DNA of 64,000 nt from an uncultured Verrucomicrobiae bacterium. Lineage in GTDB: Bacteria > Verrucomicrobiota > Verrucomicrobiia > Limisphaerales > Palsa-1400. Location of the stretch: the NCBI GenBank assembly GCA_963707025.1, contig CAVPOM010000004.1, positions 96,001-160,000 on the forward strand, in the 5' to 3' direction. Below, in pieces: positions 1,941 through 59,668 of the stretch (its first letter is position 1; every line of letters begins with the position of its first letter). Under the pieces are notes generated by a model. That model was given only the letters and a program-made list of their open reading frames with translations, had not been told where the DNA came from and did not search any database. Position numbers and translations under genes: made by a program.

Positions 1941-1979
1941 AAGCCGCTGAACTCGGAGCGTTACCGAGGCGGGCCACCA
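1941..1979 (+). pseudogene. 3' half of a tRNA paralogous to the tRNA-Lys(UUU) at 56806-56879
   Basis: T-arm ctcgg-agcgtta-ccgag, then gcgggcc-a-cca; aligns to 56843-56879 with compensatory T-stem changes. Confidence 0.8.
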
Positions 1980-2746
1980 TTTTGGGGCGTGCCCGGATGC
2001 ACTGCCTCCAGCCGGGGGCGTTTTGGGTGACATTGCCCTTCGACGGGGCTGCCTGGCCAAAGGCGGTCCAGCAAGTCGTGCCGGTACCACGACCAGGATT
2101 CGGCGACGCGAGTCCACCGGCTCCGCGCGCTCCGCTCCGGCAGGGGTTGAGGCCAGGCATCATCTGTCCCCGGCAAGCCGAGGGCCTGAGCCAGCGCCGC
2201 CGCGATCCGGGCGTGACCTTCGGCATTCGCGTGGAAACGGTCCTCGCTCCAGAGTCGCGGGTCGGAGCCGACCGGGTATGCGGCGAAGCCGATGAGACGG
2301 GCGCCGGTGGAAGTAGCGGCCTCGCGGATGGCGTCATTCATGGCCCGGACCCGGGGAGCCAGGAGACGGCCGATCGGCATGACGCCGGTGAGGTCCGGGA
2401 GCGTGAAAGTCAACACGACTGCTTTCCCGCCGATGAGCGCCCCCATCATGCACTCGAGTTCTGCCCGGAGCTTGCTCGCATCAAAACTGCGTTCGAGAAT
2501 ATCATTTGAGCCTGCGAAAACGGTTGCGAGGTCGGGCTTCATGGCGAGCGCTGGTCCAAGCTGCTCCTCGCGGATGTCCCGGGAGCGATTGCCGCGCACA
2601 CCCAGGTTCGCGTAGAGCAACCCGCCCTGCGCTTGCGCCACGCGTTCGGCCAGACGGTTCGCCCAGCCACGGTAACCACCCGCCCCATCCGGGTCTTGGA
2701 GACCTTTGCTATGCATCAATGTATCGCGGCGGCGATTTTTGCGCAT
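1961..2746 (-). pseudogene. SGNH/GDSL hydrolase, N-terminally truncated duplicate of 56818-57654
   Basis: Near-identical to the second copy from GLQDPDGAGG onward but lacks block I (VAIGDSS, catalytic Ser); DRFH motif retained. Confidence 0.85.
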
Positions 2747-49870: not shown

Positions 49871-50205
49871 AAGGCAAAAACACTTCAACCACCAACATGA
49901 GCAAGATCATCAGCAAAGTCTGGACCTTTCCATCCGACAGCAATCCCAACGTCAGTTACGAAACCTTGCGGTATGCGGATGGCACAACCTCCTGCAACTG
50001 CGAGGGCTGGACCCGTCGTGTGGCCGCCGATGGCAGCCGCTCGTGCAAACATACACGTTTCGTGGATATGGGCACGGCGGATCAAAGCTGCACGGCCACA
50101 CACAATTACGAAAGTCACCAACCACAACAAAAGGAGCAAATACATCATGCCAAAAATCACATCTGCCAAATCCCCAAACTCGGACATCGCAAAATCTCCG
50201 TCTGA
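49867..50205 (+). CDS. SWIM-like zinc-finger protein
   Basis: SCNCEGW...SCKH (CxC...CxH). Confidence 0.7.
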   Translation: MKGKNTSTTNMSKIISKVWTFPSDSNPNVSYETLRYADGTTSCNCEGWTRRVAADGSRSCKHTRFVDMGTADQSCTATHNYESHQPQQKEQIHHAKNHICQIPKLGHRKISV

Positions 50206-51706
50206 GATGAAGGGAAGAATCATAAACCACATCCGGGCCGGCTACCCGGGGCTTTATCTGGTTTCCCATGAGGAACAGAGGGTCAACCTCGAAATGAAAT
50301 CCATCGCCCGGGAACTCAAATACAACCTGGTTCTCTGGAGCGCGGTGGACGGCCTGGTGGACACCGCAAAGAACACCGCCACCGCCGCCAACGATCCCCT
50401 GGAAGCAGTATTGGCCATCCGGGATATGAAGGAGAAGACGATCATCCTGTTGCGGGATTTTCATTTGTTCCTCCAGGATCCCAACCCCATCCTGATCCGG
50501 CAATTAAAGGACGTGTTGCAGGAGGCCAAGACCAAATTCAAGACCCTGATTATTCTGGGTTGCCGGTTGTGCTTGCCTCCTGAGCTTGAGCGCGAACTGA
50601 CCGTCATCGAAATTGCCCTGCCCGGAAAAGAGGAACTGCGGGTTGTCCTCACCGGCATCATGGAATCGGCCGGCATCAAATCCATGGAGCAGGAAACCAG
50701 GGAGAAGGCGATTGATGCTGCTTCCGGGTTGACCACCATTGAAGCGGAAAATGCATTTGCCCTGTCCGTGGTGGAATCGAAGGGAATAAACCCGGAGATT
50801 GTGGCCAGGGAGAAAGCCCAGGCGGTGAAGAAGAACGGACTCCTGGAACTGGTCGAAGCCAAGGATTCGCTGGAATCCATTGGCGGGCTGGACGTGTTGA
50901 AGGAGTGGTTATTAAAGAGGAGAAATGCCTTCAGCCAAAAAGCCATTGAATACGGCCTGCCAACACCCAAGGGCGTGCTCATTATCGGAATTCCGGGGAC
51001 CGGCAAATCGTTGACGGCCAAAGCCACCGCTAAAGTCTTCGGCGTTCCCCTGCTGAAATTGGACGCCGGCAGGATCTTCGCCGGTCTGGTCGGTCAAAGC
51101 GAATCCAACCTCCGCTCCGTCATCCAAACCGCAGAGGCCATCGCGCCCTGCTGCCTCTGGATTGAGGAATTGGAGAAGGGTTTTGCCGGGAGCAAAAGTT
51201 CAGGATCAACCGATGGCGGCACCTCGGCCCGGGTGTTCGGCAGTTTCATCAGTTGGATGCAGGAAAAGAAAAGTCCTGTCTTCGTGGTGGCTACAGCCAA
51301 TGACGTGTCCCAATTGCCGCCGGAAATGCCGAGGAAGGGGAGGTTCGATGAATTGATGTTCGTGGATCGGCCCAATCAGAATGAACGGGATGCGATCTGC
51401 GGCATTCAGATCCGGAAATATGCACGCAATCCTTCGGACTTTGACCTGGTGCAATTGGCCAGAGTGACGGAGGGGCTGACGGGCAGTGAGATTGAAAGTG
51501 TGTTTGCAGATTCGTTGTACCTGGCTTTTGACAGTGACCGGGAGCCTGGAGATTTGGACGTGGCACATATTCTCACGGAGTTTGTGCCGCTGTCCAAACT
51601 GATGGCGGAGCAAATCACCGGGTTGAGGAACTGGGCGAAGGGGAGGGCGCGGTTGGCCACGTCAACGCAGGAGGTGGGAGGGGGTCCCAGGAGAATTGCC
51701 GCCTGA
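50147..51706 (+). CDS. Ycf46-like AAA+ ATPase
   Basis: HEEQR N-domain, LLRDFH, IGGLDVLKEWL, Walker A GIPGTGKS, RKGRFDE; Walker B reads WIEE. Confidence 0.9.
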   Translation: MPKITSAKSPNSDIAKSPSEMKGRIINHIRAGYPGLYLVSHEEQRVNLEMKSIARELKYNLVLWSAVDGLVDTAKNTATAANDPLEAVLAIRDMKEKTIILLRDFHLFLQDPNPILIRQLKDVLQEAKTKFKTLIILGCRLCLPPELERELTVIEIALPGKEELRVVLTGIMESAGIKSMEQETREKAIDAASGLTTIEAENAFALSVVESKGINPEIVAREKAQAVKKNGLLELVEAKDSLESIGGLDVLKEWLLKRRNAFSQKAIEYGLPTPKGVLIIGIPGTGKSLTAKATAKVFGVPLLKLDAGRIFAGLVGQSESNLRSVIQTAEAIAPCCLWIEELEKGFAGSKSSGSTDGGTSARVFGSFISWMQEKKSPVFVVATANDVSQLPPEMPRKGRFDELMFVDRPNQNERDAICGIQIRKYARNPSDFDLVQLARVTEGLTGSEIESVFADSLYLAFDSDREPGDLDVAHILTEFVPLSKLMAEQITGLRNWAKGRARLATSTQEVGGGPRRIAA

Positions 51707-51749: not shown

Positions 51750-51841
51750 AGGTGCGAGGCGAGGGTTACATTGGCGCGGGTTCTACCAATGCTGCCCATA
51801 ATCTTCTTGATAGTCGCAGGCGGCAGTATTATCCTATCCCC

Positions 51842-52201
51842 ATGAGATACGGGATCTTGCTAACGCTGTTGATGCTTGCCGGCTGCGTCCATATCCATCA
51901 ATCCAGCGGCATGGCCCGCAAGGAGCAGATTCAGGCGCATCTCAAGGACCAACTCCACTGCCAATGGCTCGAACTCCACGAGGACGGCGACCAACGCTTT
52001 GCAGGATTCGGAAAAAATGGCTCCGGAGAATTCACGATTGAGGTGACCCGCCAAGGAGACACGCTGACTTTTCGCGGCGTTTATCGTCCCCCAAGCAACG
52101 GTTCATTTAGCGGCACCGCCTCATGGAGCCGGCAAGTGGATTCGACCTTCGGTTTTCACAGGGCCAGCGATTCATTCCAGAATTCCCTGGGCGGTCCGTA
52201 A
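51842..52201 (+). CDS. Hypothetical lipoprotein
   Basis: LAGC lipobox. Confidence 0.65.
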   Translation: MRYGILLTLLMLAGCVHIHQSSGMARKEQIQAHLKDQLHCQWLELHEDGDQRFAGFGKNGSGEFTIEVTRQGDTLTFRGVYRPPSNGSFSGTASWSRQVDSTFGFHRASDSFQNSLGGP

Positions 52202-52403
52202 GCCATTTCTACACATACGAAACCCTGGCCATGAAACAATGGGGAGCCAGGCGGGCTCTTTTTTAGATGTCCGGTGATTTTCATTCCTGCAACTCGTCCA
52301 GAGCCACCAGTCGCCGGCGCACGCTGGTATTGCCACAACGTCCGTATGCGGCTGGGCTTCCACGTGTAGTTTCCAGCCCTCGGTTACGAAATCATAGCAG
52401 GAT

Positions 52404-53722
52404 CACAAGCCTCCGGTCATTAGTCCCACAACATCAACTGGTTATGACTATTGCTAGGATTATTTTGAGATTGGGTTTGTGTAACCAGTTGTGCCAGAGG
52501 GATTTGCTCAAAAACGTTCACGCTCAAAATCTGTAGGATTTGGGACAAGCTCAACTCCAGCCTAAGTTCCTTGCGAACGATAGCCACCAGCACGTAAACG
52601 CAGATGGCGATCCAGACTTGCGTCTTGACCGCGTTGTCCGTCGTGCCGAAAAAGTGTTTGATCCGCAGGTTTTGCTTGATCCACTTGAAGAACAATTCCA
52701 CCTGCCAGCGGCATTTGTAGAGTTGGGCGATAATAAGGGCGGGCAAGTCAAAGTTATTAGTCAAGAATACCAATATCTTCCCGTCCTTCGGATCTCTATA
52801 ACTGACCCGGCGCAAGCGGTCCGGGTAATGCGCCACGCTTTGGGGCAGACTCAGCCACACGATGTGGTCGCTGCGCACGCCCGTGCTTTTGTCCACCGGA
52901 CGGGACTCCAACCGGTTGAGTTGTACGCCGGCTTTGGTGCGGGTGACAAAGAACGCCCCCGCCAGTTCAAAGCCATAGAGCCGTCGAAAATCCACGTAGG
53001 CGCGATCCATCACATAGAAGGCCCCCGGCTCGGGAATCAATTCGTCCAGCACGCGCACGTCGGCCTGTGTTCCCTCGGTAATCGAGATCATCGTCGGAAT
53101 CGGGCCGCGCAAATCCAGCAGCGTGTGGAGCTTGATCGCGGCCTTGGTAGAGCGAAATCGCGCCTAGGGGAACAAGCTCAGGCAAAGATCAATCGTGGTG
53201 GAATCCAAGGCGTAAACGGTTTGCTCCAACTCGACGGCGAGCGGTTCGTTGGCGTAAAGACGGCGGGCGCGCGCGATGAGCCGTTGCGCCAGGTCGGCGT
53301 AGATGCGCCAGTCGCGCGCGCCGTCGGCGTCGGCCAGGGTGCTATGCGCCACGGTCGAACGGAAACCCATCCGATAGAGTTGGTCTGGCCGCGAGCGCAG
53401 GCAGACTTCGATGTCCGCCAAGCTTTCCCGATAAGTGATCTGAGCGAAGGCCATAGCCAGGAACTGATCCCAACATGGGAAGCTACAAACCTTGTAGTTT
53501 CCATCGTAGCGATTGACACAGCGACGAAATTGTTCGGGATGTATCCACTCGGTCAGTTGCGAAAAAATCAATTTTCCAGTGAGCATGGTGCCAGTTTGGC
53601 ATCATGGCTGCTGCGGAGAATGACAAAACAAAGTTCAAATCGCTCACATCATTTTTCATGCGCATGTGGTTCCCATTGCGCATTTTACAACTGGCGACGT
53701 TCTCCGTGACCGGATGACAGTG
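52404..53722 (-). mobile_element. IS4-family element (DUF4372-type transposase 53586-52420) inactivated by a TAG at 53164-53166
   Basis: IRs cacaagcctccggtca / cactgtcatccggtca; LFP*ARFR; MDRAY, YKCRWQVELFFKW; no clear target duplication. Confidence 0.9.
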
Positions 53723-53900: not shown

Positions 53901-54221
53901 TTACAACGTCCTCTTCCCTTCCGCCCTGGCCCTCGCCCATCTCGCCCGGACCGCCGCTGCAAGTTTGGCCCTGGTTGCTGGACTGCTGCGCCGATCCTTC
54001 TTTTTGGAAACCTTCACCCTAGCCCAACGTGCCCTGGCCCCGGCCGCAATCGCCGCCCTTCCCGCCGCACTCAATCGCCTCTTGCTTTTCTTGGCCGCTT
54101 TTGCCATTGCCGAGCGTATCTTCCGCGCCCGCGCCAGAGCCTTAATGAGTTTACGCTTGTGGGCGGCGGTCATGTGATAATTGCGTTTGGCTGGAGTTGG
54201 CACCTCGGCTGGACTGGACAC
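53901..54221 (-). CDS. Basic Lys/Arg/Ala-rich histone-like protein (likely N-truncated)
   Basis: Repeats LSAAGRAAIAAGARARWA and SSPATRAKLAAAVRARWA. Confidence 0.6.
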   Translation of the reverse strand: MSSPAEVPTPAKRNYHMTAAHKRKLIKALARARKIRSAMAKAAKKSKRRLSAAGRAAIAAGARARWARVKVSKKKDRRSSPATRAKLAAAVRARWARARAEGKRTL

Positions 54222-54235
54222 GGCGACTTCTCCAG

Positions 54236-54687
54236 TATTTGGCCGCGCAATAGAGCGAAATCATCGGCAGACCGACAAGCCCTGCGCGAGAGCTGACGTT
54301 GATAATCAAGCCGCTCTTGTTCCGCCGGAAATGCGGCAACAGCGCCCGCGTGACATCCATCACGCCGAAGACGTTGACATTGAATTGTTCCTGAACCTTT
54401 TCGCGCGAAATCCCCTCGAAGATGCCGAAAAGGCTAAAGCCAGCGTTGTTGATCAAAGCGTCAATCCGGCCGAACCGCCCCATCCCGTCCGCGACGGCCG
54501 CGTCAATGCTCTCTCGATCCTGCACATCCAGTCGTGTGACCAATATGCCAGGCAGGCGGGCCAATTCCGAATCCGCCGCCGGCTGGCGCATGGTGGCAAT
54601 GACGTTCCAGTCGTTACCTGCAAAGACCCTGGCCGCCGCCAGGCCAATACCGGAGGACGCTCCCGTGATCAGAACTGTTTTCTTCAT
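54236..54687 (-). pseudogene. SDR oxidoreductase, C-terminally truncated
   Basis: ITGASSGIG, NNAG; SDR similarity ends at YCAAK. Confidence 0.85.
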
Positions 54688-54760
54688 GCACCCCCATCGT
54701 CTCAAGCTTTCACGCAAAAAGCGAATCGCAGGCGCTGGAGCACGGACCACCAATTTCAAC

Positions 54761-54836
54761 GCTCCCGTAGCTCAATCACCAGAGCGCGACGCTTCGAACG
54801 TCGAAGATGAGGGTGAGAGTCCTTCCGGGAGTGCCA
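54761..54836 (+). tRNA. tRNA-Arg(UCG)
   Basis: Acceptor gctcccg/cgggagt-g-cca; anticodon arm cgacg-cttcgaa-cgtcg; T-loop TGAGAGT. Confidence 0.85.
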
Positions 54837-54842
54837 ATTCAG

Positions 54843-54919
54843 GCCGCGTTAGCCCAACTACCAGAGGCGCCCCGCTTAGGACGGGGAGGTTGGGGGTGGA
54901 AATCCCTCACGCGGCACCA
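54843..54919 (+). tRNA. tRNA-Leu(UAG), short variable region
   Basis: gccgcgt/acgcggc-a-cca; ccccg-cttagga-cgggg; T-loop TGGAAAT. Confidence 0.85.
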
Positions 54920-54923
54920 CTTT

Positions 54924-54997
54924 GCTCCCGTAGCCCAAAGCAGAGGCGACGGGCTTAAACCCCGTGCAGTGTCAGTGCAAATCTGACCGGGAGCACC
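54924..54997 (+). tRNA. tRNA-Leu(UAA), short variable region
   Basis: gctcccg/cgggagc-a-cc; acggg-cttaaac-cccgt; gtcag-tgcaaat-ctgac. CCA incomplete and abuts the next gene. Confidence 0.85.
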
Positions 54998-55073
54998 CGC
55001 GTGTAGCCCAATTAGCAGAGGCGTCCTGCTCAAACCGGGGAGGTTGCAGGTGCAAGTCCTGTCACGCGGACCA
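54997..55073 (+). tRNA. tRNA-Leu(CAA), short variable region
   Basis: ccgcgtg/cacgcgg-a-cca; tcctg-ctcaaac-cgggg; gcagg-tgcaagt-cctgt. Confidence 0.85.
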
Positions 55074-55077
55074 ATTT

Positions 55078-55165
55078 GGAATGTCAACCGGACACGCGAG
55101 CCGGGCCTGTTTGCTAAACAGTGCGTGCCCTCGGGCAAGTGGCGCAAGTCCACGGCATTCCGCCA
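55078..55165 (+). tRNA. tRNA-Ser(GCU) with 8/4 acceptor/T-stem fold
   Basis: ggaatgtc/ggcattcc-g-cca; loop ttgctaa; V-arm tgccc-tc-gggca; gtgg-cgcaagt-ccac. Confidence 0.8.
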
Positions 55166-55173
55166 TTTTCTGC

Positions 55174-55265
55174 GCGCGCGTAGTTCAAAGTCGAACGGTC
55201 CGTCTTATAAACGGAGTCGCACTAGATGAGTGCCCAGGTCCGGAGCTTACCGGACGCGCGCACCA
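55174..55265 (+). tRNA. tRNA-Ile(UAU)-anticodon tRNA with long variable arm
   Basis: gcgcgcg/cgcgcgc-a-cca; tccgt-cttataa-acgga; V-arm gcact-agatg-agtgc; 6-nt T-loop. Confidence 0.75.
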
Positions 55266-55318
55266 TTTCCAATCACCGTGGTGTTCTCCAGCAATACGTC
55301 AGAATCGTCAAAAGCCCC

Positions 55319-56419
55319 TTAATGCTGATCACCAGTGTTCGTCGAACCTGAATCTTGGACGGGCGCAGGAAGTTTTTGAAGGAAGCTCTCAAGATCAGGA
55401 ACAAGCGTGTTCGCACTCTGTTCGTCGAGAAGAACTCGTAAGGTATAACCTCTCGCAGCTTCATCAAGGTAACGTCGCATCTCAGTGTTCGGCTGGTTGA
55501 ACAATTTCAAAGCCCGGCGTAGGACTGGCGCAGCGTTGGCATCCTTAGCGATTAACAAAGCATGTGCGTAATAGAAAATGCCCCAGTAATCCGTGTGGTT
55601 CCATCCACCAGCTCCGAAGTCGTCCAACCACTTTCCCAGACGGTCGCGGACGTCAGGAACGACCGACATATCTCCAACCTGCACCAGACACAGAGCGTCA
55701 TCCGGTTCATGAGATCGTTCATACTCTTTGCGTATTGTGGCTTTCGCCTCGCTGTTATTGATATGGATCAAGTAGTTCAATGCACCCTGCCGGAGGTACC
55801 AATCGCCGCCGCCATCGGCCTCAATATAGTGTTCAGCATCCGGCATCGCCCTTTGATCACCAATTTTGCCGAGTGCTACGAAGACCTCCTCCTTCACGCG
55901 CCATGCAGACCCTTCCCAGGAATACTGGTGTCGGAGGATTCTCAGCAAAACGTCAGCGCTGTCCTTTGCACGAAGGGTCCCAAGAGTTTCAATCTGCGAA
56001 TCGTATTCGATTAAGGTCAGGTCGGTCCACACGGACTCCAAGTCCTTTTGCAATACTGGGGCAGCACGCAAATCTCCCAGTTTCTGCAACGCGCGACAGA
56101 TGGCCTCCTTTGTATTGTGGTTATTCCCGCACGCTGTGTATGCTCGACAAAGGTTTGCCACCCGGTCGCGCTGCTTTTGGGCGAGTACGCCATTTAATGC
56201 GTCAGGTGTGTTGAAAAACCACAGCGTTGGTAGAATTTGAACAAGTTCGTCGTATCCACCGTCTCCAGCCTCAACCAAGGCGGTCACCTTTTCCTTCTCC
56301 CTGGCGATGCGTTGGTGCCGGCGGTGGTTGCTCAACGACTCCAGAGCATCGGGCAGAACTAGAAGCGTCAGCAACGCGACCAAGATGCTCCAAACCCAAA
56401 ATCAACGTGTCAGTTTCAT
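55319..56419 (-). pseudogene. HEAT/PBS-lyase repeat membrane-anchored protein with in-frame TGA at codon 6
   Basis: MKLTR*FWVWSILVALL; ALGKIGDQRAMP and ALQKLGDLRAAP repeats. Could restart at TTG 56383. Confidence 0.65.
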
Positions 56420-56565
56420 GGTGGTCTGTGATAAGAGCGTAACTATTCCAAAGCTGAAATGCACGCGTCATCGCGGAGCCTCGGTCCAAGAAGCCGTTTC
56501 AAATCACTGAACGCGAAACAGCTCCAGCGGCCTCGCGAAGTGCATTTAGCCGGTGAAAGAGCATC

Positions 56566-56637
56566 CGCAGTCGAACCAGCGTTCAGGCAGGCGTCATAAG
56601 CCAGTCGAGCCCAGGGCAGCACTGGGGACTGCGACCA
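56566..56637 (+). tRNA. tRNA with CAU anticodon (Met or Ile2), degenerate D-arm
   Basis: cgcagtc/gactgcg-a-cca; loop gtcataa; cccag-ggcagca-ctggg. Confidence 0.65.
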
Positions 56638-56642
56638 TTTTC

Positions 56643-56714
56643 GCCTCCATGCAGCAACCTGCGGATTTCTTTTGTAAGGAAATCTAGCCGGAGCATCCCC
56701 GGCTGGAGGCTCCA
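56643..56714 (+). tRNA. tRNA-Thr(UGU), reduced D-arm
   Basis: gcctcca/tggaggc-t-cca; tttct-tttgtaa-ggaaa; gccgg-agcatcc-ccggc. Confidence 0.7.
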
Positions 56715-56722
56715 CAGATTTT

Positions 56723-56799
56723 GCTCGCGTAGTCCAACAGCAGAGACACGACGTCGAGAACGTCGCCAGTGTCCCGACTCGTCGGGACCGCGAGCACCA
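56723..56799 (+). tRNA. tRNA-Leu(GAG), short variable region, aberrant T-loop
   Basis: gctcgcg/cgcgagc-a-cca; cgacg-tcgagaa-cgtcg (C33); gtccc-gactcgtc-gggac. Confidence 0.7.
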
Positions 56800-56805
56800 G
56801 TTCTT

Positions 56806-56879
56806 GGTCTGCAAGCATTAAAGTGATGCAACTGCCTTTTGAGCCGTTGAACCGGGAGCGTTACCCGGGCGGGCCACCA
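56806..56879 (+). tRNA. tRNA-Lys(UUU)
   Basis: ggtctgc/gcgggcc-a-cca; gcat-taaagtg-atgc; loop cttttga; ccggg-agcgtta-cccgg; one anticodon-stem mismatch. Confidence 0.75.
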
Positions 56880-57654
56880 TTTGGGCCGTGCCAAGATGCA
56901 CCGCCTCCAGCCGGGGACGTTTTGGGTGAAATTGCCCTTCGACGGGGCTGCCCGGCCAAAGGCGGTCCAGCAAGTGGTGCCGGCACCACGACCAGGATTC
57001 GGCCATGCGAGCCCAACGGCTCCGTGCGTTCCGCTCCGGCATGGGCTGCTGCCAGGCATCATCCGTCCCCGGCAAGCCGAGGGCCTGGGCCAGCGCCGCC
57101 GCGATCCGGGCGTGGCCTTCGGCGTTCACATGGAAACGGTCCTCGCTCCAGAGTCGCGGGTCGGAGCCAACCGGGTATGCGGCGAAGTCAATGAGGCGGG
57201 CGCCGGTGGAAGCTGCGGCCTCGCGGATGGTGTCATTCATGGCCCGGACCCGGGGAGCCAGGAGACGGCCGATCGGCATGACGCCGGTGAGGTCCGGGAG
57301 CGTGAAAGTCAACACGACTGCTTTCCCGCCGACGAGCGCCCCCAGCATGCACTCGAGTTCTGCCCGCAGCTTGGCAGCATCGAAACTGCGTTCGAGGATG
57401 TCATTCGAGCCCGCGAAAACCGTCGCGAGGTCGGGCTTCATTGCACGCGCTGGTCCAAGCTGCTCCTCGCGGATTTCCCGGGAGCGCTTGCCGCGCACAC
57501 CCAGGTTAGCGTAGAGCAACCCGCCCTGCGCTTGCGCCACGCGCTCTGCCAGACGGTTCGCCCAGCCACGGTAACCGCCCGCCCCATCCGGGTCTTGGAG
57601 CCCCTCGGTGGAACTGTCGCCGATCGCGACGTAGCGATCGAATCGGAGCGTCAT
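56818..57654 (-). CDS. SGNH/GDSL hydrolase
   Basis: VAIGDSSTEG, NLGVRG, GSND, DRFH; 3' end overlaps tRNA-Lys antisense. Confidence 0.9.
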   Translation of the reverse strand: MTLRFDRYVAIGDSSTEGLQDPDGAGGYRGWANRLAERVAQAQGGLLYANLGVRGKRSREIREEQLGPARAMKPDLATVFAGSNDILERSFDAAKLRAELECMLGALVGGKAVVLTFTLPDLTGVMPIGRLLAPRVRAMNDTIREAAASTGARLIDFAAYPVGSDPRLWSEDRFHVNAEGHARIAAALAQALGLPGTDDAWQQPMPERNARSRWARMAESWSWCRHHLLDRLWPGSPVEGQFHPKRPRLEAVHLGTAQMVARPGNAPGSTAQKAVASL

Positions 57655-57759
57655 GACGATATTGTGCGGGATGGCAACGGGGCACGTCTATGTGAACTTG
57701 AAGAAGATGCATTTTCAAACCGGCGGATTTACCCCGTTTTCGGACCGCCACTGACATTT

Positions 57760-57834
57760 TGCCGGGTCGTCTAATTCGTAGGACACTGCCCTTTGAAGGC
57801 GCTTATGTTGGTGCAAATCCAGCCCCGGCAGCCA
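57760..57834 (+). tRNA. tRNA-Gln(UUG)
   Basis: tgccggg/cccggca-g-cca; loop ctttgaa; gttgg-tgcaaat-ccagc. Confidence 0.8.
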
Positions 57835-57839
57835 ATTTT

Positions 57840-57913
57840 CGCCCGGTGGTGAAATAGGATCACGTCCGGCCTACACCCGGAAATCGAGGGGGCAGAACCT
57901 TCCCGGGCGACCA
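57840..57913 (+). tRNA. tRNA-Val(UAC)
   Basis: cgcccgg/ccgggcg-a-cca; tccgg-cctacac-ccgga (C33); gaggg-ggcagaa-ccttc. Confidence 0.78.
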
Positions 57914-57914
57914 T

Positions 57915-57989
57915 TGCCTCGTTGCATAATCAGGAGTGCGCCGGTCTCTGACACCGGAAGACCTGGAGCAAAACCAGGCGAGGCAGCCA
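57915..57989 (+). tRNA. tRNA-Gln(CUG)
   Basis: tgcctcg/cgaggca-g-cca; ccggt-ctctgac-accgg; cctgg-agcaaaa-ccagg. Confidence 0.82.
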
Positions 57990-58046
57990 ATTTCATCGTG
58001 AACCCTAATCCCGACCGGCGGGGGTCGAATCGAAATAAATCATTTT

Positions 58047-58091
58047 TATCTTGTTTTTATGATAAACCTTATTTATCCTGTTTACATGATA
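58047..58091 (+). promoter_or_regulatory. Two HipB-type operators
   Basis: TATC-N10-GATA at 58047-64 and 58074-91, matching the geometry of the E. coli hip operator TATCC-N8-GGATA. Confidence 0.75.
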
Positions 58092-58336
58092 TGACGGACT
58101 ACCCGATCAAAACGCCGCAACAGCTTGGCTCTGTGCTCCAAGGATATCGGAGGGAGCAGAGACTGACCCAACAGGCGGTCGGAGCCAAAGTGGGGCTCGC
58201 GCAAAACGCCGTTTCGCAAATTGAGGCCGACCCGGGGAGCGCCGGATTGGCGCGAATCTTCAAGTTATTGGCCGCCCTCGATCTTGAACTTGTCGTGCGG
58301 CCGAGGAAAGCAAACGCACGCCAGTCAGACTGGTGA
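58091..58336 (+). CDS. hipB: HipB-like XRE HTH antitoxin
   Basis: TPQQLG, LTQQAVGAKVGLAQNAVSQIE, terminal W. Confidence 0.9.
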   Translation: MTDYPIKTPQQLGSVLQGYRREQRLTQQAVGAKVGLAQNAVSQIEADPGSAGLARIFKLLAALDLELVVRPRKANARQSDW

Positions 58337-58339
58337 CGT

Positions 58340-59668
58340 ATGGGCAGGCGTCGAAAGTCCCGCTCCCTCTCCGTGTGGATGAACGGGGAGAAGGTTGGTG
58401 ATTGGCGTGTGGCGGCCACCGGCCAGGAATTCCTCTACGCGGAGAGATGGCTCTCCTCTCCTGCCGCCAGACCCATTTCGCTGTCGTTGCCGTTGCGCCC
58501 TTCCCAAGAACCGTATCGCGATGGCGTGGAAGCATTCTTCGATAATCTGCTGCCTGATAATCGTCAAATCCGCGAGCGAATCCAGCGCCGATTCAATACC
58601 CGGTCGGTTGGGGCGTTCGACCTGTTGCAAGAAATAGGGCGGGATTGTGTTGGCGCGTTGCAATTGATGCCGGAAGACGAGCCACCGCCCGGCATACAGC
58701 AAATCACTGGCGAGCGCCTGACACCAACCGGAGTCGAGCAACTTCTATCCGGGACCTTGGCCCCGACGTTCCATGAAGCAGAGGCGGATGAGGACGCCTT
58801 CCGGATTTCGTTGGCGGGAGCGCAAGAAAAGACGGCGCTGTTGTGGCACAAAGGCGCCTGGCTGCGGCCGACGCATGCGACCCCCACAACGCATATTCTC
58901 AAGCTCCCCATGGGGATCAACACCCAGGGAATTGATCTTTCAACGTCGGTGGAAAACGAATGGCTATGCGCGCAAATAGCAGAGGCGTATGGCATCGAGG
59001 TGGCGAAATGCCGGATCGAAACGTTTGGCCAGTACAAGACACTCGTCGTGGAGCGGTTTGATCGGAGGCTGGCCCCTGATCGGACGTGGCATCTGCGATT
59101 ACCGCAGGAGGACCTTTGCCAGGCGACCACCACGCCCCCGGCACTGAAATACGAGAGCGATGGCGGCCCAGGCATTGCTGTCGTCATGGACCTGTTGCTG
59201 GGTTCGGAGCGAGCGGTTGAGGATCGCCGGGATTTTATGCGCACCCAATTGGTATTCTGGATGCTGGCGGCGATCGACGGCCACGCCAAAAACTTCAGCC
59301 TGTTTATTCTGCCGGGCGGTGCGTATCGGCTGACGCCGCGATATGACATTATGTCCGCCTATCCAATTCTGGGGCACGGCCGCGGCAAGTTGGCGCCGGA
59401 CAAGATCCGAATGGCCATGGCCGTAACGGGGAAGAGTCGTCATTATCGGTGGAAAGAAATTCACGCTCGGCACTGGATCGATACGGCGAGGCGCCAGGGA
59501 CTTGGAGATATGGAGCAAATTATGTCGGATGTGATCGCACGGACACCGGCGGCGATTGACCTGGTGCGCAACATGGTGCCGAGGGGATTTCCTGCTCAGA
59601 TTGCCGAGGCAATACTCGGCGGAATTGAAACGCGCGCAGAACAGCTCAATGCGGAGTTGTCGGACTAA
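58340..59668 (+). CDS. hipA: HipA Ser/Thr kinase toxin
   Basis: ISLAGAQEK, VERFDR, QEDLCQA, DGHAKNFS, LTPRYD. Confidence 0.95.
   Translation: MGRRRKSRSLSVWMNGEKVGDWRVAATGQEFLYAERWLSSPAARPISLSLPLRPSQEPYRDGVEAFFDNLLPDNRQIRERIQRRFNTRSVGAFDLLQEIGRDCVGALQLMPEDEPPPGIQQITGERLTPTGVEQLLSGTLAPTFHEAEADEDAFRISLAGAQEKTALLWHKGAWLRPTHATPTTHILKLPMGINTQGIDLSTSVENEWLCAQIAEAYGIEVAKCRIETFGQYKTLVVERFDRRLAPDRTWHLRLPQEDLCQATTTPPALKYESDGGPGIAVVMDLLLGSERAVEDRRDFMRTQLVFWMLAAIDGHAKNFSLFILPGGAYRLTPRYDIMSAYPILGHGRGKLAPDKIRMAMAVTGKSRHYRWKEIHARHWIDTARRQGLGDMEQIMSDVIARTPAAIDLVRNMVPRGFPAQIAEAILGGIETRAEQLNAELSD

Follow-up and report, generated by a model that had tools for sequence, protein, structure and literature searches.

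A conserved array of irregular tRNA genes in an uncultured Verrucomicrobiae bacterium, a candidate stand-by decoding set

Why would a bacterium carry, besides its ordinary transfer RNAs (tRNAs), a tight run of thirteen further tRNA genes whose shapes depart from the textbook cloverleaf? This question is raised by positions 54761-57989 of a 64,000-nucleotide stretch of DNA (the window) from an uncultured Verrucomicrobiae bacterium (GenBank assembly GCA_963707025.1, contig CAVPOM010000004.1), in which an earlier note, made from the letters alone, had described an accessory and partly eroding tRNA array. The answer that we favour, and hold to be rather probable, is that the genome holds three copies of a conserved, phage-related long tRNA array (L-array) that spreads horizontally, of which this locus is one and which would provide a stand-by decoding set. 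Membership of the L-array kind is well supported at the level of the family, while expression, charging, use by the ribosome and the back-up role are what we infer. The purpose of long accessory tRNA arrays has been settled in one organism only; here, an entire second set of tRNAs, linked on the DNA to genes for RNA repair, appears to have been maintained over long evolutionary times with several near-universal tRNA rules broken and the standard-code identity elements kept. It thereby makes testable how much of the canonical elbow translation needs, whether spare tRNAs serve as a toxin defence, and what purpose an extra arm on a UAU tRNA has.

Layout and detection of the array

The assembly comprises 6.96 Mb in 18 contigs, with 60% G+C and an estimated 88% completeness. 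All thirteen cloverleafs of the earlier note were present on the plus strand with the anticodons and the order that it gave (UCG, UAG, UAA, CAA, GCU, UAU / CAU, UGU, GAG, UUU / UUG, UAC, CUG), spanning 3229 bp in blocks of six, four and three units. The units, with the tool or comparison that identified each and the discriminator base 73, are as follows.

54761-54836, plus: U01, tRNA-Arg(UCG); ARAGORN, RF00005 at 54.7 bits; G73, CCA, T-loop UGAGAGU
54843-54919, plus: U02, class-I tRNA with Leu anticodon UAG; ARAGORN (77 nt), RF00005 at 47.4 bits; A73, CCA
54924-54997, plus: U03, class-I tRNA with Leu anticodon UAA; ARAGORN, RF00005 at 51.9 bits; A73, ends in ACC
54997-55073, plus: U04, class-I tRNA with Leu anticodon CAA; ARAGORN, RF00005 at 46.5 bits; A73, CCA
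55078-55165, plus: U05, tRNA-Ser(GCU), 8/4 type with long variable arm; homologue comparison; G73, CCA
55174-55265, plus: U06, tRNA(UAU), 7/5 type with extra arm; ARAGORN -ps90 and comparison; A73, CCA
56566-56637, plus: U07, tRNA(CAU); homologue comparison; A73, CCA, T-loop GGCAGCA
56643-56714, plus: U08, tRNA-Thr(UGU); homologue comparison; U73, CCA
56723-56799, plus: U09, class-I tRNA with Leu anticodon GAG; seven orthologues; A73, CCA
56806-56879, plus: U10, tRNA-Lys(UUU); ARAGORN -ps90, 18 and 74 homologues; A73, CCA, T-loop AGCGUUA
57760-57834, plus: U11, tRNA-Gln(UUG); ARAGORN, RF00005 at 47.4 bits; G73, CCA
57840-57913, plus: U12, tRNA-Val(UAC); RF00005 at 41.7 bits, by E-value threshold only; A73, CCA, T-loop GGCAGAA
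57915-57989, plus: U13, tRNA-Gln(CUG); RF00005 at 46.4 bits, ARAGORN -ps90; G73, CCA, T-loop AGCAAAA

Genome-wide, ARAGORN called 78 tRNAs in the 6.96 Mb; as this average is only one per ~89 kb, the clustering of tRNAs at the array far exceeds chance. The mostly encoded CCA and the short T-rich spacers reported before were both found: CCA is encoded by 12 of the 13 units, the remaining one being U03, whose ACC end shares C54997 with U04. Encoded CCA was nevertheless discarded as a hallmark of the array, since 45 of the 51 housekeeping ARAGORN calls of the same genome also end in it.

Standard annotation scored the array poorly, as had been anticipated. With default settings on the whole 64-kb window, ARAGORN called five tRNAs (Arg-tcg, Leu-tag, Leu-taa, Leu-caa and Gln-ttg), all inside the array, and the Rfam model RF00005 at its gathering score gave six matches. 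When RF00005 was run on 54400-58400 at E ≤ 10, seven matches of 41.7-54.7 bits were obtained, with Val-UAC added and none for the GCU, UAU, CAU, UGU, GAG and UUU units. ARAGORN at -ps90 additionally called UAU (55174-55265), UUU (56806-56879) and CUG, while the GCU, CAU, UGU and GAG units received no correct call from ARAGORN (down to -ps70) or Rfam; the 16 and 31 calls made at -ps80 and -ps70 were mainly spurious or antisense and were rejected as noise. Because standard finders thus overlook 6-8 of the 13 genes (six by Rfam, eight by default ARAGORN), the numbers of tRNAs counted in the genomes of Verrucomicrobiota and of their phages are too low, and the published array surveys rely on such finders.

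The set is accessory, as the earlier note had proposed: 11 of the 13 anticodons duplicate canonical stand-alone tRNAs elsewhere in the genome, and paralogous arrays lie on C2 (106063-107947) and C8 (72274-74734). UAU and Ser-GCU have no canonical counterpart in the 88%-complete assembly, and a relaxed ARAGORN run on it gave no canonical tRNA-Ser(GCU) or tRNA-Ser(GGA), which may be a gap at that completeness. AGC and UCC each account for ~31-32% of Ser codons, and Ser-GCU genes were seen only as the 8/4 units of the three arrays; the idea that the array is the sole reader of AGY codons was dropped, a missing canonical Ser-GCU being no evidence in an assembly of this completeness. Eight of the 13 anticodons begin with U. 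That several of them read A-ending codons rare in this host held, in a sample of 2489 long open reading frames (ORFs), for UUA and CUA (2% and 1% of Leu codons), AUA (10% of Ile) and CGA, GUA and ACA (7% each of their families), but not for AAA (53% of its family) and CAA (37%).

Irregular structures, recoded elbow and identity elements

Are the unusual shapes decay or design? Covariation was scored in alignments of distinct homologues of U05-U08, against 500 shuffles each and against controls in which the 3′ partners were slid by 1-3 columns. Paired cells reached 98.1% in U05 (57 sequences; 89.5% in shuffles; compensatory changes in 16 of 27 pairs), 98.6% in U06 (38 sequences; 84.7%; 12 of 26), 98.6% in U07 (29 sequences; 93.4%; 8 of 22) and 95.3% in the hand-drawn structure of U08 (33 sequences; 89.7%; 11 of 22). 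None of the 500 shuffles matched the observed pairing in any of the four units, and in the slid controls pairing fell to 23-54%. Kinship among sequences can beat shuffles without any structure, and three of the four structures were derived from the same alignments; it is the slid controls together with the compensatory pair counts that leave little doubt on the structures of U05-U08. Covariation in homologous arrays, on which the earlier note had made its claim depend, was thus found in each unit tested, with 8-16 compensatory pairs. The anticodon triplets are invariant in these four alignments, and alike in those of U10 (18 and 74 homologues) and U09 (seven). By this conservation, the six units missed by RF00005 (GCU, UAU, CAU, UGU, GAG and UUU) are real tRNA genes, and their shapes conserved designs under purifying selection rather than decay. 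A 123-aa ORF antisense to block 2 (56443-56814) matched 61 loci, where only the underlying tRNAs are conserved and the frames break, and was discarded as a gene.

The departures differ from unit to unit. The four units with Leu anticodons (U02, U03, U04 and U09) are 74-77 nt long with a variable region of 4-5 nt, and the five stand-alone Leu tRNAs of the same genome measure 84-88 nt. U05 has an 8-bp acceptor and a 4-bp T stem, with pair 8:84 being CG in 55 and AU in one of 57 sequences and a fifth T-stem pair that would be an A.G mismatch in the window copy; its D stem has 4 bp and a 9-nt loop, its anticodon stem 6 bp with a bulge, four of the five pairs of its long variable-arm helix are compensatory, and the base before CCA, G55162 in the window, is G in 54 of the 57 aligned sequences (manual reading). 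These acceptor and T stems, the long variable arm and G73 liken it to the (8/4) tRNA-Ser of Mukai et al. 2017 (PMC5389517), from whose Sec-like D arm (long stem, tetraloop) that of U05 differs.

U06 carries an extra arm (window 55216-55233) of the form GCACU-AGAU(G/C)-AGUGC, four of whose five helix pairs never vary whereas all other helices covary; when the arm is read with a 7-nt loop, GAU stands at its tip in 36 of the 38 aligned sequences (manual count). Position 8 is always U, and the T-stem pair 49:65 alternates between UA (22 sequences) and CG (16); because this pair covaries, U06 was assigned to the 7/5 type, and an 8/4 reading drawn from a first small alignment was ruled out. In U07 nucleotides 8-9 are absent, and a 4-bp D stem with a tetraloop is joined by a 7-position anticodon stem with an A.A; U08 combines a 4-bp D stem and tetraloop with a 7-bp anticodon stem and a 2-nt variable region, and in both units zero or one linker nucleotide follows the acceptor and the variable region has 2-3 nt. 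In U10 a long D stem is combined with an anticodon stem of 6 bp, and the window copy shows a private G37 and one stem mismatch.

Mukai et al. described (8/4) tRNA-Ser, allo-tRNA(UAU) and polycistrons of irregular tRNAs near toxin-antitoxin genes (PMC5389517), which the array resembles in its run of irregular 7/5 and 8/4 tRNAs, its long-armed UAU tRNA and an adjacent toxin-antitoxin pair. Their examples come from Acidobacteria, Clostridia, Proteobacteria and phages, and the D arms in the window are not all Sec-like. Kinship of U06 with the published allo-tRNA(UAU) was ruled out: those are 8/4 or 9/3 and the listed examples start with GGAGGG and have U73, whereas U06 is 7/5 with A73, and five array motifs were absent from the paper's supplementary sequence tables.

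The elbow is altered throughout. When the CCA-ending tRNAs called by ARAGORN across the genome were compared, those in the arrays of C2, C4 and C8 had G55 in 23 of 23 cases and lacked the D-loop GG in 22 of 23, against T55 in 43 of 45 and the GG in 43 of 45 of the remaining, housekeeping tRNAs. Outside the arrays T55 is missing in two cases, in tRNA-Sec owing to a register effect and in an isolated tRNA-Glu(CUC) of the array type at C7:240632. This last gene (C7:240632-240706, minus strand), with T-loop UGCGAUU and a D-loop without GG, lies outside any array and is the only Glu-CUC gene called by ARAGORN in the assembly. U02 combines a D-loop ..ACC.. with a T-loop UGGAAAU, which looks like a swapped 19:56 pair.

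Against this recoded body, the elements that tie a tRNA to its amino acid have been kept. Each of the 13 units has the discriminator base found in the housekeeping tRNAs of the genome for the amino acid to which its anticodon corresponds, i.e. G73 for Arg, Ser and both Gln units, A73 for the four Leu, UAU, CAU, Lys and Val units, and U73 for Thr. Other identity elements follow as well, with U1-A72 and G2-C71 in both Gln units, G1-C72 and C2-G71 in the Thr unit U08, G2-C71, R4-Y69 and the long arm in the Ser unit U05, and C4-G69 and U12-A23 in 38 of 38 sequences of the UAU unit U06, which has A35, U36, A37 and A38 as well; these agree with the bacterial identity sets collected by Giege and Eriani (PMC9976931).

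Family, synteny and phage links

The paralogous arrays on C2 and C8 are 76-97% identical to the window copy unit by unit; like related arrays they are longer than it, and the three arrays combined approach a full isoacceptor set. In the 61 genomes searched (its own included), block 1 was matched in 22, block 2 in 21 and block 3 in 32, often in several copies. A 19-base pattern of U10 was present in 105 stretches of the species-genome collection, and the 80 loci fetched with it, five of which were chance matches without any unit, came mostly from Verrucomicrobiota metagenome-assembled genomes (Verrucomicrobiia, Limisphaerales, Pedosphaera, 'subdivision 3'). A few bins with the pattern are labelled Acidobacteria, and array contigs also sit in bins labelled Saccharimonadales, Bifidobacteriaceae, Klebsiella and Pseudomonadales (L086, L078, L096, L097, L100, L115 and L135); several of the oddly labelled bins have units 95-99% identical to the window's and are probably mis-binned contigs of a multi-copy or mobile element. 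The earlier note had proposed a search for the same anticodon order in related genomes: units stand in strictly ascending order in 51 of the 63 loci with at least three units, and in many relatives the three blocks are contiguous, without the two antisense genes of the window. The patchy occurrence in 21-32 of 61 relatives plus viral contigs of IMG/VR points to a horizontally spreading family.

To describe the neighbourhood, the ORFs of the 63 loci were clustered and representatives scanned with Pfam. The counts below are lower bounds, since 2.5 kb of upstream DNA was available in only 40 loci and 2.5 kb of downstream DNA in only 49.

Rsr/Ro60: 15 of 63 loci; upstream on the same strand for 15 of 16 genes
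SPFH/Band-7: 11 of 63 loci; upstream in 10 of 11
238-aa protein of no family (c238): 10 of 63 loci; upstream in 10 of 10, next to SPFH
CobB-like SIR2: 17 of 63 loci; upstream and antisense in 18 of 18
HNH endonuclease: 19 of 63 loci; downstream on the same strand in 19 of 19
RtcB: 19 of 63 loci; downstream in 18 of 19

Of the 63 loci, 44 have one or more of the genes for Rsr, SPFH, SIR2, HNH and RtcB. In the genome under study, its only TROVE (Rsr) gene (C8:77875-78828) and its only RtcB gene (C8:65465-66538) flank the C8 array, which also contains a metallophosphoesterase, SIR2, a Kinase-PolyVal protein and a Upx-like protein. PADLOC gave no defence-system assignment for SIR2, SPFH, c238, Rsr or HipA, and, apart from weak matches to HNH, recognized only a Upx-like protein, which lies downstream of certain arrays.

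These features agree largely with the L-arrays defined by Santamaria-Gomez et al. 2021, who list Verrucomicrobia among the phyla carrying them; in Anabaena, translational stress induces the L-array, charging was shown for 23 of the 26 tRNAs, and HNH and rtcB lie nearby or are co-regulated (PMC8421152). Like the array of Anabaena (PCC 7120), ours is a dense, same-strand run of supernumerary tRNAs that duplicates housekeeping anticodons, and the family shares with L-arrays the patchy distribution, the horizontal spread and, in 19 of the 63 related loci each, HNH beside the array and rtcB in the neighbourhood (PMC8421152). The family differs in having HNH downstream in 19 of 19 cases and not upstream as described for the cyanobacterial L-arrays (PMC8421152), in adding Rsr, SPFH and the antisense SIR2, and in its near-universal recoded elbow and irregular architectures; the window copy itself differs from the Anabaena array in having 13 units, two interrupting genes, and no HNH or RtcB. 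A tRNA array unit has been set at ≥20 tRNA genes with ≥2 per kb (Tran et al. 2016, PMC4758250); the window has sufficient density within its blocks, and its count of 13 falls short of 20. Other surveys of tRNA arrays include those of Morgado & Vicente 2018 (PMC5966550) and of Mycobacterium avium plasmids (PMC12803027). In the literature searched, which left most subscription journals outside, no description was found of the G55 elbow, the class-I Leu tRNAs, the type with tetraloop D arm and 7-bp anticodon stem, or the UAU extra arm; accessory long tRNA arrays are thus an already published kind, and this body plan was not found in print.

A second resemblance is to Rsr-Y RNA-RtcB operons, in which Rsr and RtcB bracket RNA genes as they do in the relatives and the C8 copy (PMC4201824; Hughes et al. 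2020, PMC7790460). Chen et al. 2014 described tRNA-like Y RNAs beside Rsr (PMC4201824), and tRNA-like RNAs likewise adjoin Rsr in the relatives and the C8 copy. Unlike those operons with one or two Y RNAs, the arrays hold a dozen or more full cloverleafs with anticodons, RtcA and RtcR were not seen, and the window copy is without Rsr and RtcB.

On the stand-by reading, the 13 genes would encode chargeable, decoding tRNAs on a non-standard body plan, forming a pool that may keep translation running when housekeeping tRNAs are damaged or limiting, as under attack by tRNA-cleaving toxins, translational stress or conflict with phages, and that would work together with the RNA-repair genes Rsr and RtcB, which border the arrays of most relatives and also the C8 copy.

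Phage genomes hold further relatives of the array. Block 1 matches 23 Streptomyces phage records, via U03 alone and at ~80% identity; in phage Karimac (MH590599.1) the matching gene is annotated as a tRNA-Leu(taa) of 75 nt and has a tRNA-Ile(tat) close by, in a region rich in tRNAs. The U10 pattern occurs on five IMG/VR contigs of 51-120 kb, in whose 9-12-kb loci ARAGORN called 3-24 tRNAs, and one of the viral contigs (L171) has Leu tag-taa-caa genes of 75-78 nt in the window order, some of them having the G55 loop. On viral contigs with as many as 16-24 tRNAs per 12 kb one meets the U10 motif, the class-I triad of Leu tRNAs or the extra arm of the UAU tRNA. Most of these phage relatives retain the canonical TTC T-loop, unlike the array (12 of 16, 3 of 3, 9 of 16, 3 of 6 and 22 of 24 calls in five viral loci). 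The extra-arm pattern of U06 was found on 10 viral contigs (L174-L183, 11-406 kb), nine of which have UAU tRNAs with acceptor, D and T arms unrelated to those of U06, several with ordinary TTC loops. Because the other arms of these nine are unrelated, the extra arm is a module that accompanies the UAU anticodon rather than the tRNA body. A plasmid search gave only two single-tRNA matches, and the window has no phage structural genes. Jumbo phages are known to combine tRNA sets with RtcB and, rarely, TROVE proteins, and tRNA sets with RNA ligases in phages have been interpreted as counter-defence (Iyer et al., PMC7824862).

A more speculative extension, possible but tentative, is that the body plan is 'orthogonal', i.e. 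that it hides a full decoding set from toxins and sensors of the standard tRNA shape and frees it from enzymes acting on U55 and G18. The array might then be a phage counter-defence kit domesticated by Verrucomicrobia together with Rsr and RtcB, and the extra arm an identity or modification handle for reading AUA without lysidine. The features called upon are G55 with A for G18, Leu tRNAs without the long arm, Ser of the 8/4 type, the tetraloop D arms and 7-bp anticodon stems of the CAU and UGU units, and an AUA reader that would be marked by an invariant GAU-tipped arm across unrelated bacterial and phage tRNA bodies.

Counter-evidence, rival explanations and the state of the window copy

Several observations weigh against the stand-by reading, some concerning decoding as such and some the window copy. 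As to decoding, a few minor identity pairs differ from those listed, namely C3-G70 instead of G3-C70 in both Gln units and Val, U4-A69 in Thr where G4-C69 is listed, and A4-U69 in CAU where U4-A69 is listed for Met; and some of the irregular tRNAs of Mukai et al. were charged yet unused in translation (PMC5389517). E. coli LeuRS requires G18:U55, G19-C56 and U54:A58 for leucylation (PMC9976931); since these contacts are the ones altered in the array, it is uncertain whether the host enzyme would charge the four class-I Leu units. An E. coli tRNA-Leu without the long arm is still active (PMC9976931), and such charging is plausible.

As to the window copy, a scan of 17 ORFs from 39987 to 63152 revealed no Rsr, RtcB, HNH or SIR2, two antisense insertions interrupt the array, and a promoter and terminator scan gave nothing above shuffles, with no promoter-like site upstream of any block. 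Erosion was measured as departures of the window from columns common to ≥90% of homologues. U09 has five private deviations, the most among eight sequences and all in a rebuilt T arm (a 6-bp stem with a 6-nt loop, where the seven orthologues have a 5-bp stem and a UGC... loop, e.g. GUCAG-UGCAAGU-CUGAC), and U06 has three, including a unique 1-nt T-loop deletion that leaves a 6-nt loop, as many being found in only three of 33 homologues. The window copy could be silent and redundant with those on C2 and C8. No sequencing run contained as much as half of the words of the stretch; the shares of 0.05-0.13 come from relatives and permit no claim on habitat or strain. Three metatranscriptome runs, each of a different study, and a single DNA run were examined for contigs of ≥88% likeness. 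The RNA-library contigs, which stem from relatives (88-99% alike) and may reflect contaminating DNA, cover the tRNA blocks and the GDSL gene described below, span U01+U02, U05-U06, U11+U12 and U12+U13, and at some joints skip precisely the GDSL insertion, which is a weak hint of expression. The region 55372-56491 was uncovered in all four runs and is uninformative on expression of the HEAT gene within the array.

The bracketing by Rsr and RtcB and the recoded elbow also bear on a different function, in which the RNAs would be tRNA-shaped but non-decoding, acting as decoys or sponges for tRNA-targeting nucleases or as Y-RNA-like ligands or substrates of Rsr and RtcB, so that the anticodon loops and acceptor ends would be preserved because toxins or repair enzymes, and not the ribosome, recognize them. 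The elbow, recoded in 23 of 23 array tRNAs, is what the ribosome, RNase P, the CCA enzyme and several synthetases read; Rsr and RtcB enclose the arrays of the family; and YrlA/Y-RNA matches adjoin Rsr inside the C8 array. A sponge role was discussed beside a back-up role by the Anabaena authors (PMC8421152), and Mukai et al. found, besides the charged but unused tRNAs, allo-tRNA(UAU) species that were inactive in E. coli (PMC5389517). Yet in 13 of 13 units the anticodon is accompanied by the corresponding discriminator and acceptor identity pairs, an agreement that decoys of anticodon nucleases could do without, the three arrays jointly hold a nearly full isoacceptor set, and the elbow changes look compensatory, e.g. 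the D-loop ACC with the T-loop GG of U02. We therefore regard a non-decoding role as unlikely, though to be taken seriously. The Y-RNA matches (L002:13365-14005) score 38.8-43.4 bits against gathering thresholds of 69-80, and may be true Y RNAs or tandem-tRNA artefacts, given the warning of Chen et al. that tandem tRNAs can mimic YrlA in searches (PMC4201824).

The features in and around the window copy are the following.

54151-54687, minus: short-chain dehydrogenase (SDR) fragment, ~178 aa from an ATG at 54687 (ORF listing to 54759)
54697-54753, plus: possible decayed 3′ part of a tRNA-Lys(CUU) unit; weak, from alignment with the Lys-CUU units preceding U01 in C2 and G030
55319-56383, minus: HEAT-repeat protein gene, 354 aa, between U06 and U07; Pfam HEAT_2, E 5.4e-10
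56818-57654, minus: GDSL/SGNH hydrolase gene, between U10 and U11; Pfam Lipase_GDSL_2, E 3.1e-29
58091-58336, plus: hipB; Pfam HTH_3
58340-59668, plus: hipA; HipA_C, E 1.6e-51, and Couple_hipA

The SDR fragment matches positions 1-153 of the 195 of Pfam adh_short (E 1.7e-38). The segment 54236-55258, which includes part of it and block 1, is 80% DNA-identical to C8:73688-74734, where the SDR gene is split over two frames, and the putative Lys-CUU remnant, which retains only patches and a ...ACCACCAATTT end, is in the same state in the C8 copy. SDR fragment and block 1 have been duplicated together, from or to the C8 array. The window copy is a secondary, rearranged one, lacking the flanking repair genes and split, as the earlier note had it, by two antisense genes. 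The HEAT protein gave tblastn matches only in the window's own loci, and its gene is a private insertion. The GDSL gene, whose last ~20 codons run antisense over U10, occupies the identical site, the U10/U11 gap, in 11 other places.

Seen in this light, the window copy might be a silent, decaying duplicate, i.e. a fragment of a C8-type island copied with the dehydrogenase fragment, having lost its promoter-proximal part and repair genes, with insertions breaking up the remainder. This would account for the 80% identity to C8 including the truncated SDR gene, the possible Lys-CUU remnant, the antisense genes inside the array, the lesions of U09 and U06, the missing final A in the CCA of U03, and the lack of Rsr, RtcB and HNH nearby and of promoter-like sites. 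Against it, 11 of the 13 units show only 0-2 deviations, comparable to orthologues (none private in U01 against 32 homologues and none in U12 against 52), the helices of all units other than those with lesions are intact, and the GDSL insertion kept at 11 other places suggests that a split array is tolerated in the long term. The claim of partial erosion accordingly stands for the private T-arm lesions of U09 and U06 and fails for the odd shapes, which are conserved and covarying, and we give the silent-duplicate explanation little probability.

The array was also said to end at hipBA. An HTH antitoxin gene followed by a HipA kinase gene, a real hipBA toxin-antitoxin pair, does follow U13 on the same strand, and hipB starts 102 bp past it. 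This proximity might suggest a functional coupling, in which the array buffers translation against the HipA kinase or is regulated by HipB, and allo-tRNA genes near toxin-antitoxin systems have been reported (Mukai et al., PMC5389517). HipA or HipB was, on the other hand, found in none of the 164 other loci with array members, by which a conserved link was ruled out, and in relatives the position after U13 is occupied by HNH and RtcB. Glu and Trp tRNAs are among the known targets of HipA-type kinases, and no array unit has a Glu or Trp anticodon. The adjacency is thus private to this genome and the pair, outside the conserved element, probably a chance neighbour; the coupling has next to no probability.

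Some side observations concern the main array island of the genome, C8:72274-81806 (L002:6283-16059, minus strand). Its order is tRNAs, the YrlA/Y-RNA matches, Rsr (L002:11129-12907), metallophosphoesterase, an antisense CobB-like SIR2 with an N-terminal extension of ~118 aa, the SDR fragment, more tRNAs, Kinase-PolyVal and a Upx-like protein of 1517 aa, with RtcB farther on. The array-family neighbours c238, c303, c611, c629 and c687 (loci L066-L139) have no Pfam, PADLOC or NCBIfam match, and a 687-aa protein lies between HNH and RtcB in three loci. In the window, the three ORFs at 51752-53709, which follow a gene for an AAA+ ATPase upstream of the array, belong to no Pfam family. The AAA+ ATPase gene itself (49973-51706) has a 95% identical paralogue at C9:424292-425971, and the GDSL gene has one, 92% identical and without the C-terminal tail that overlaps U10, 52 kb upstream at window positions 1942-2704.

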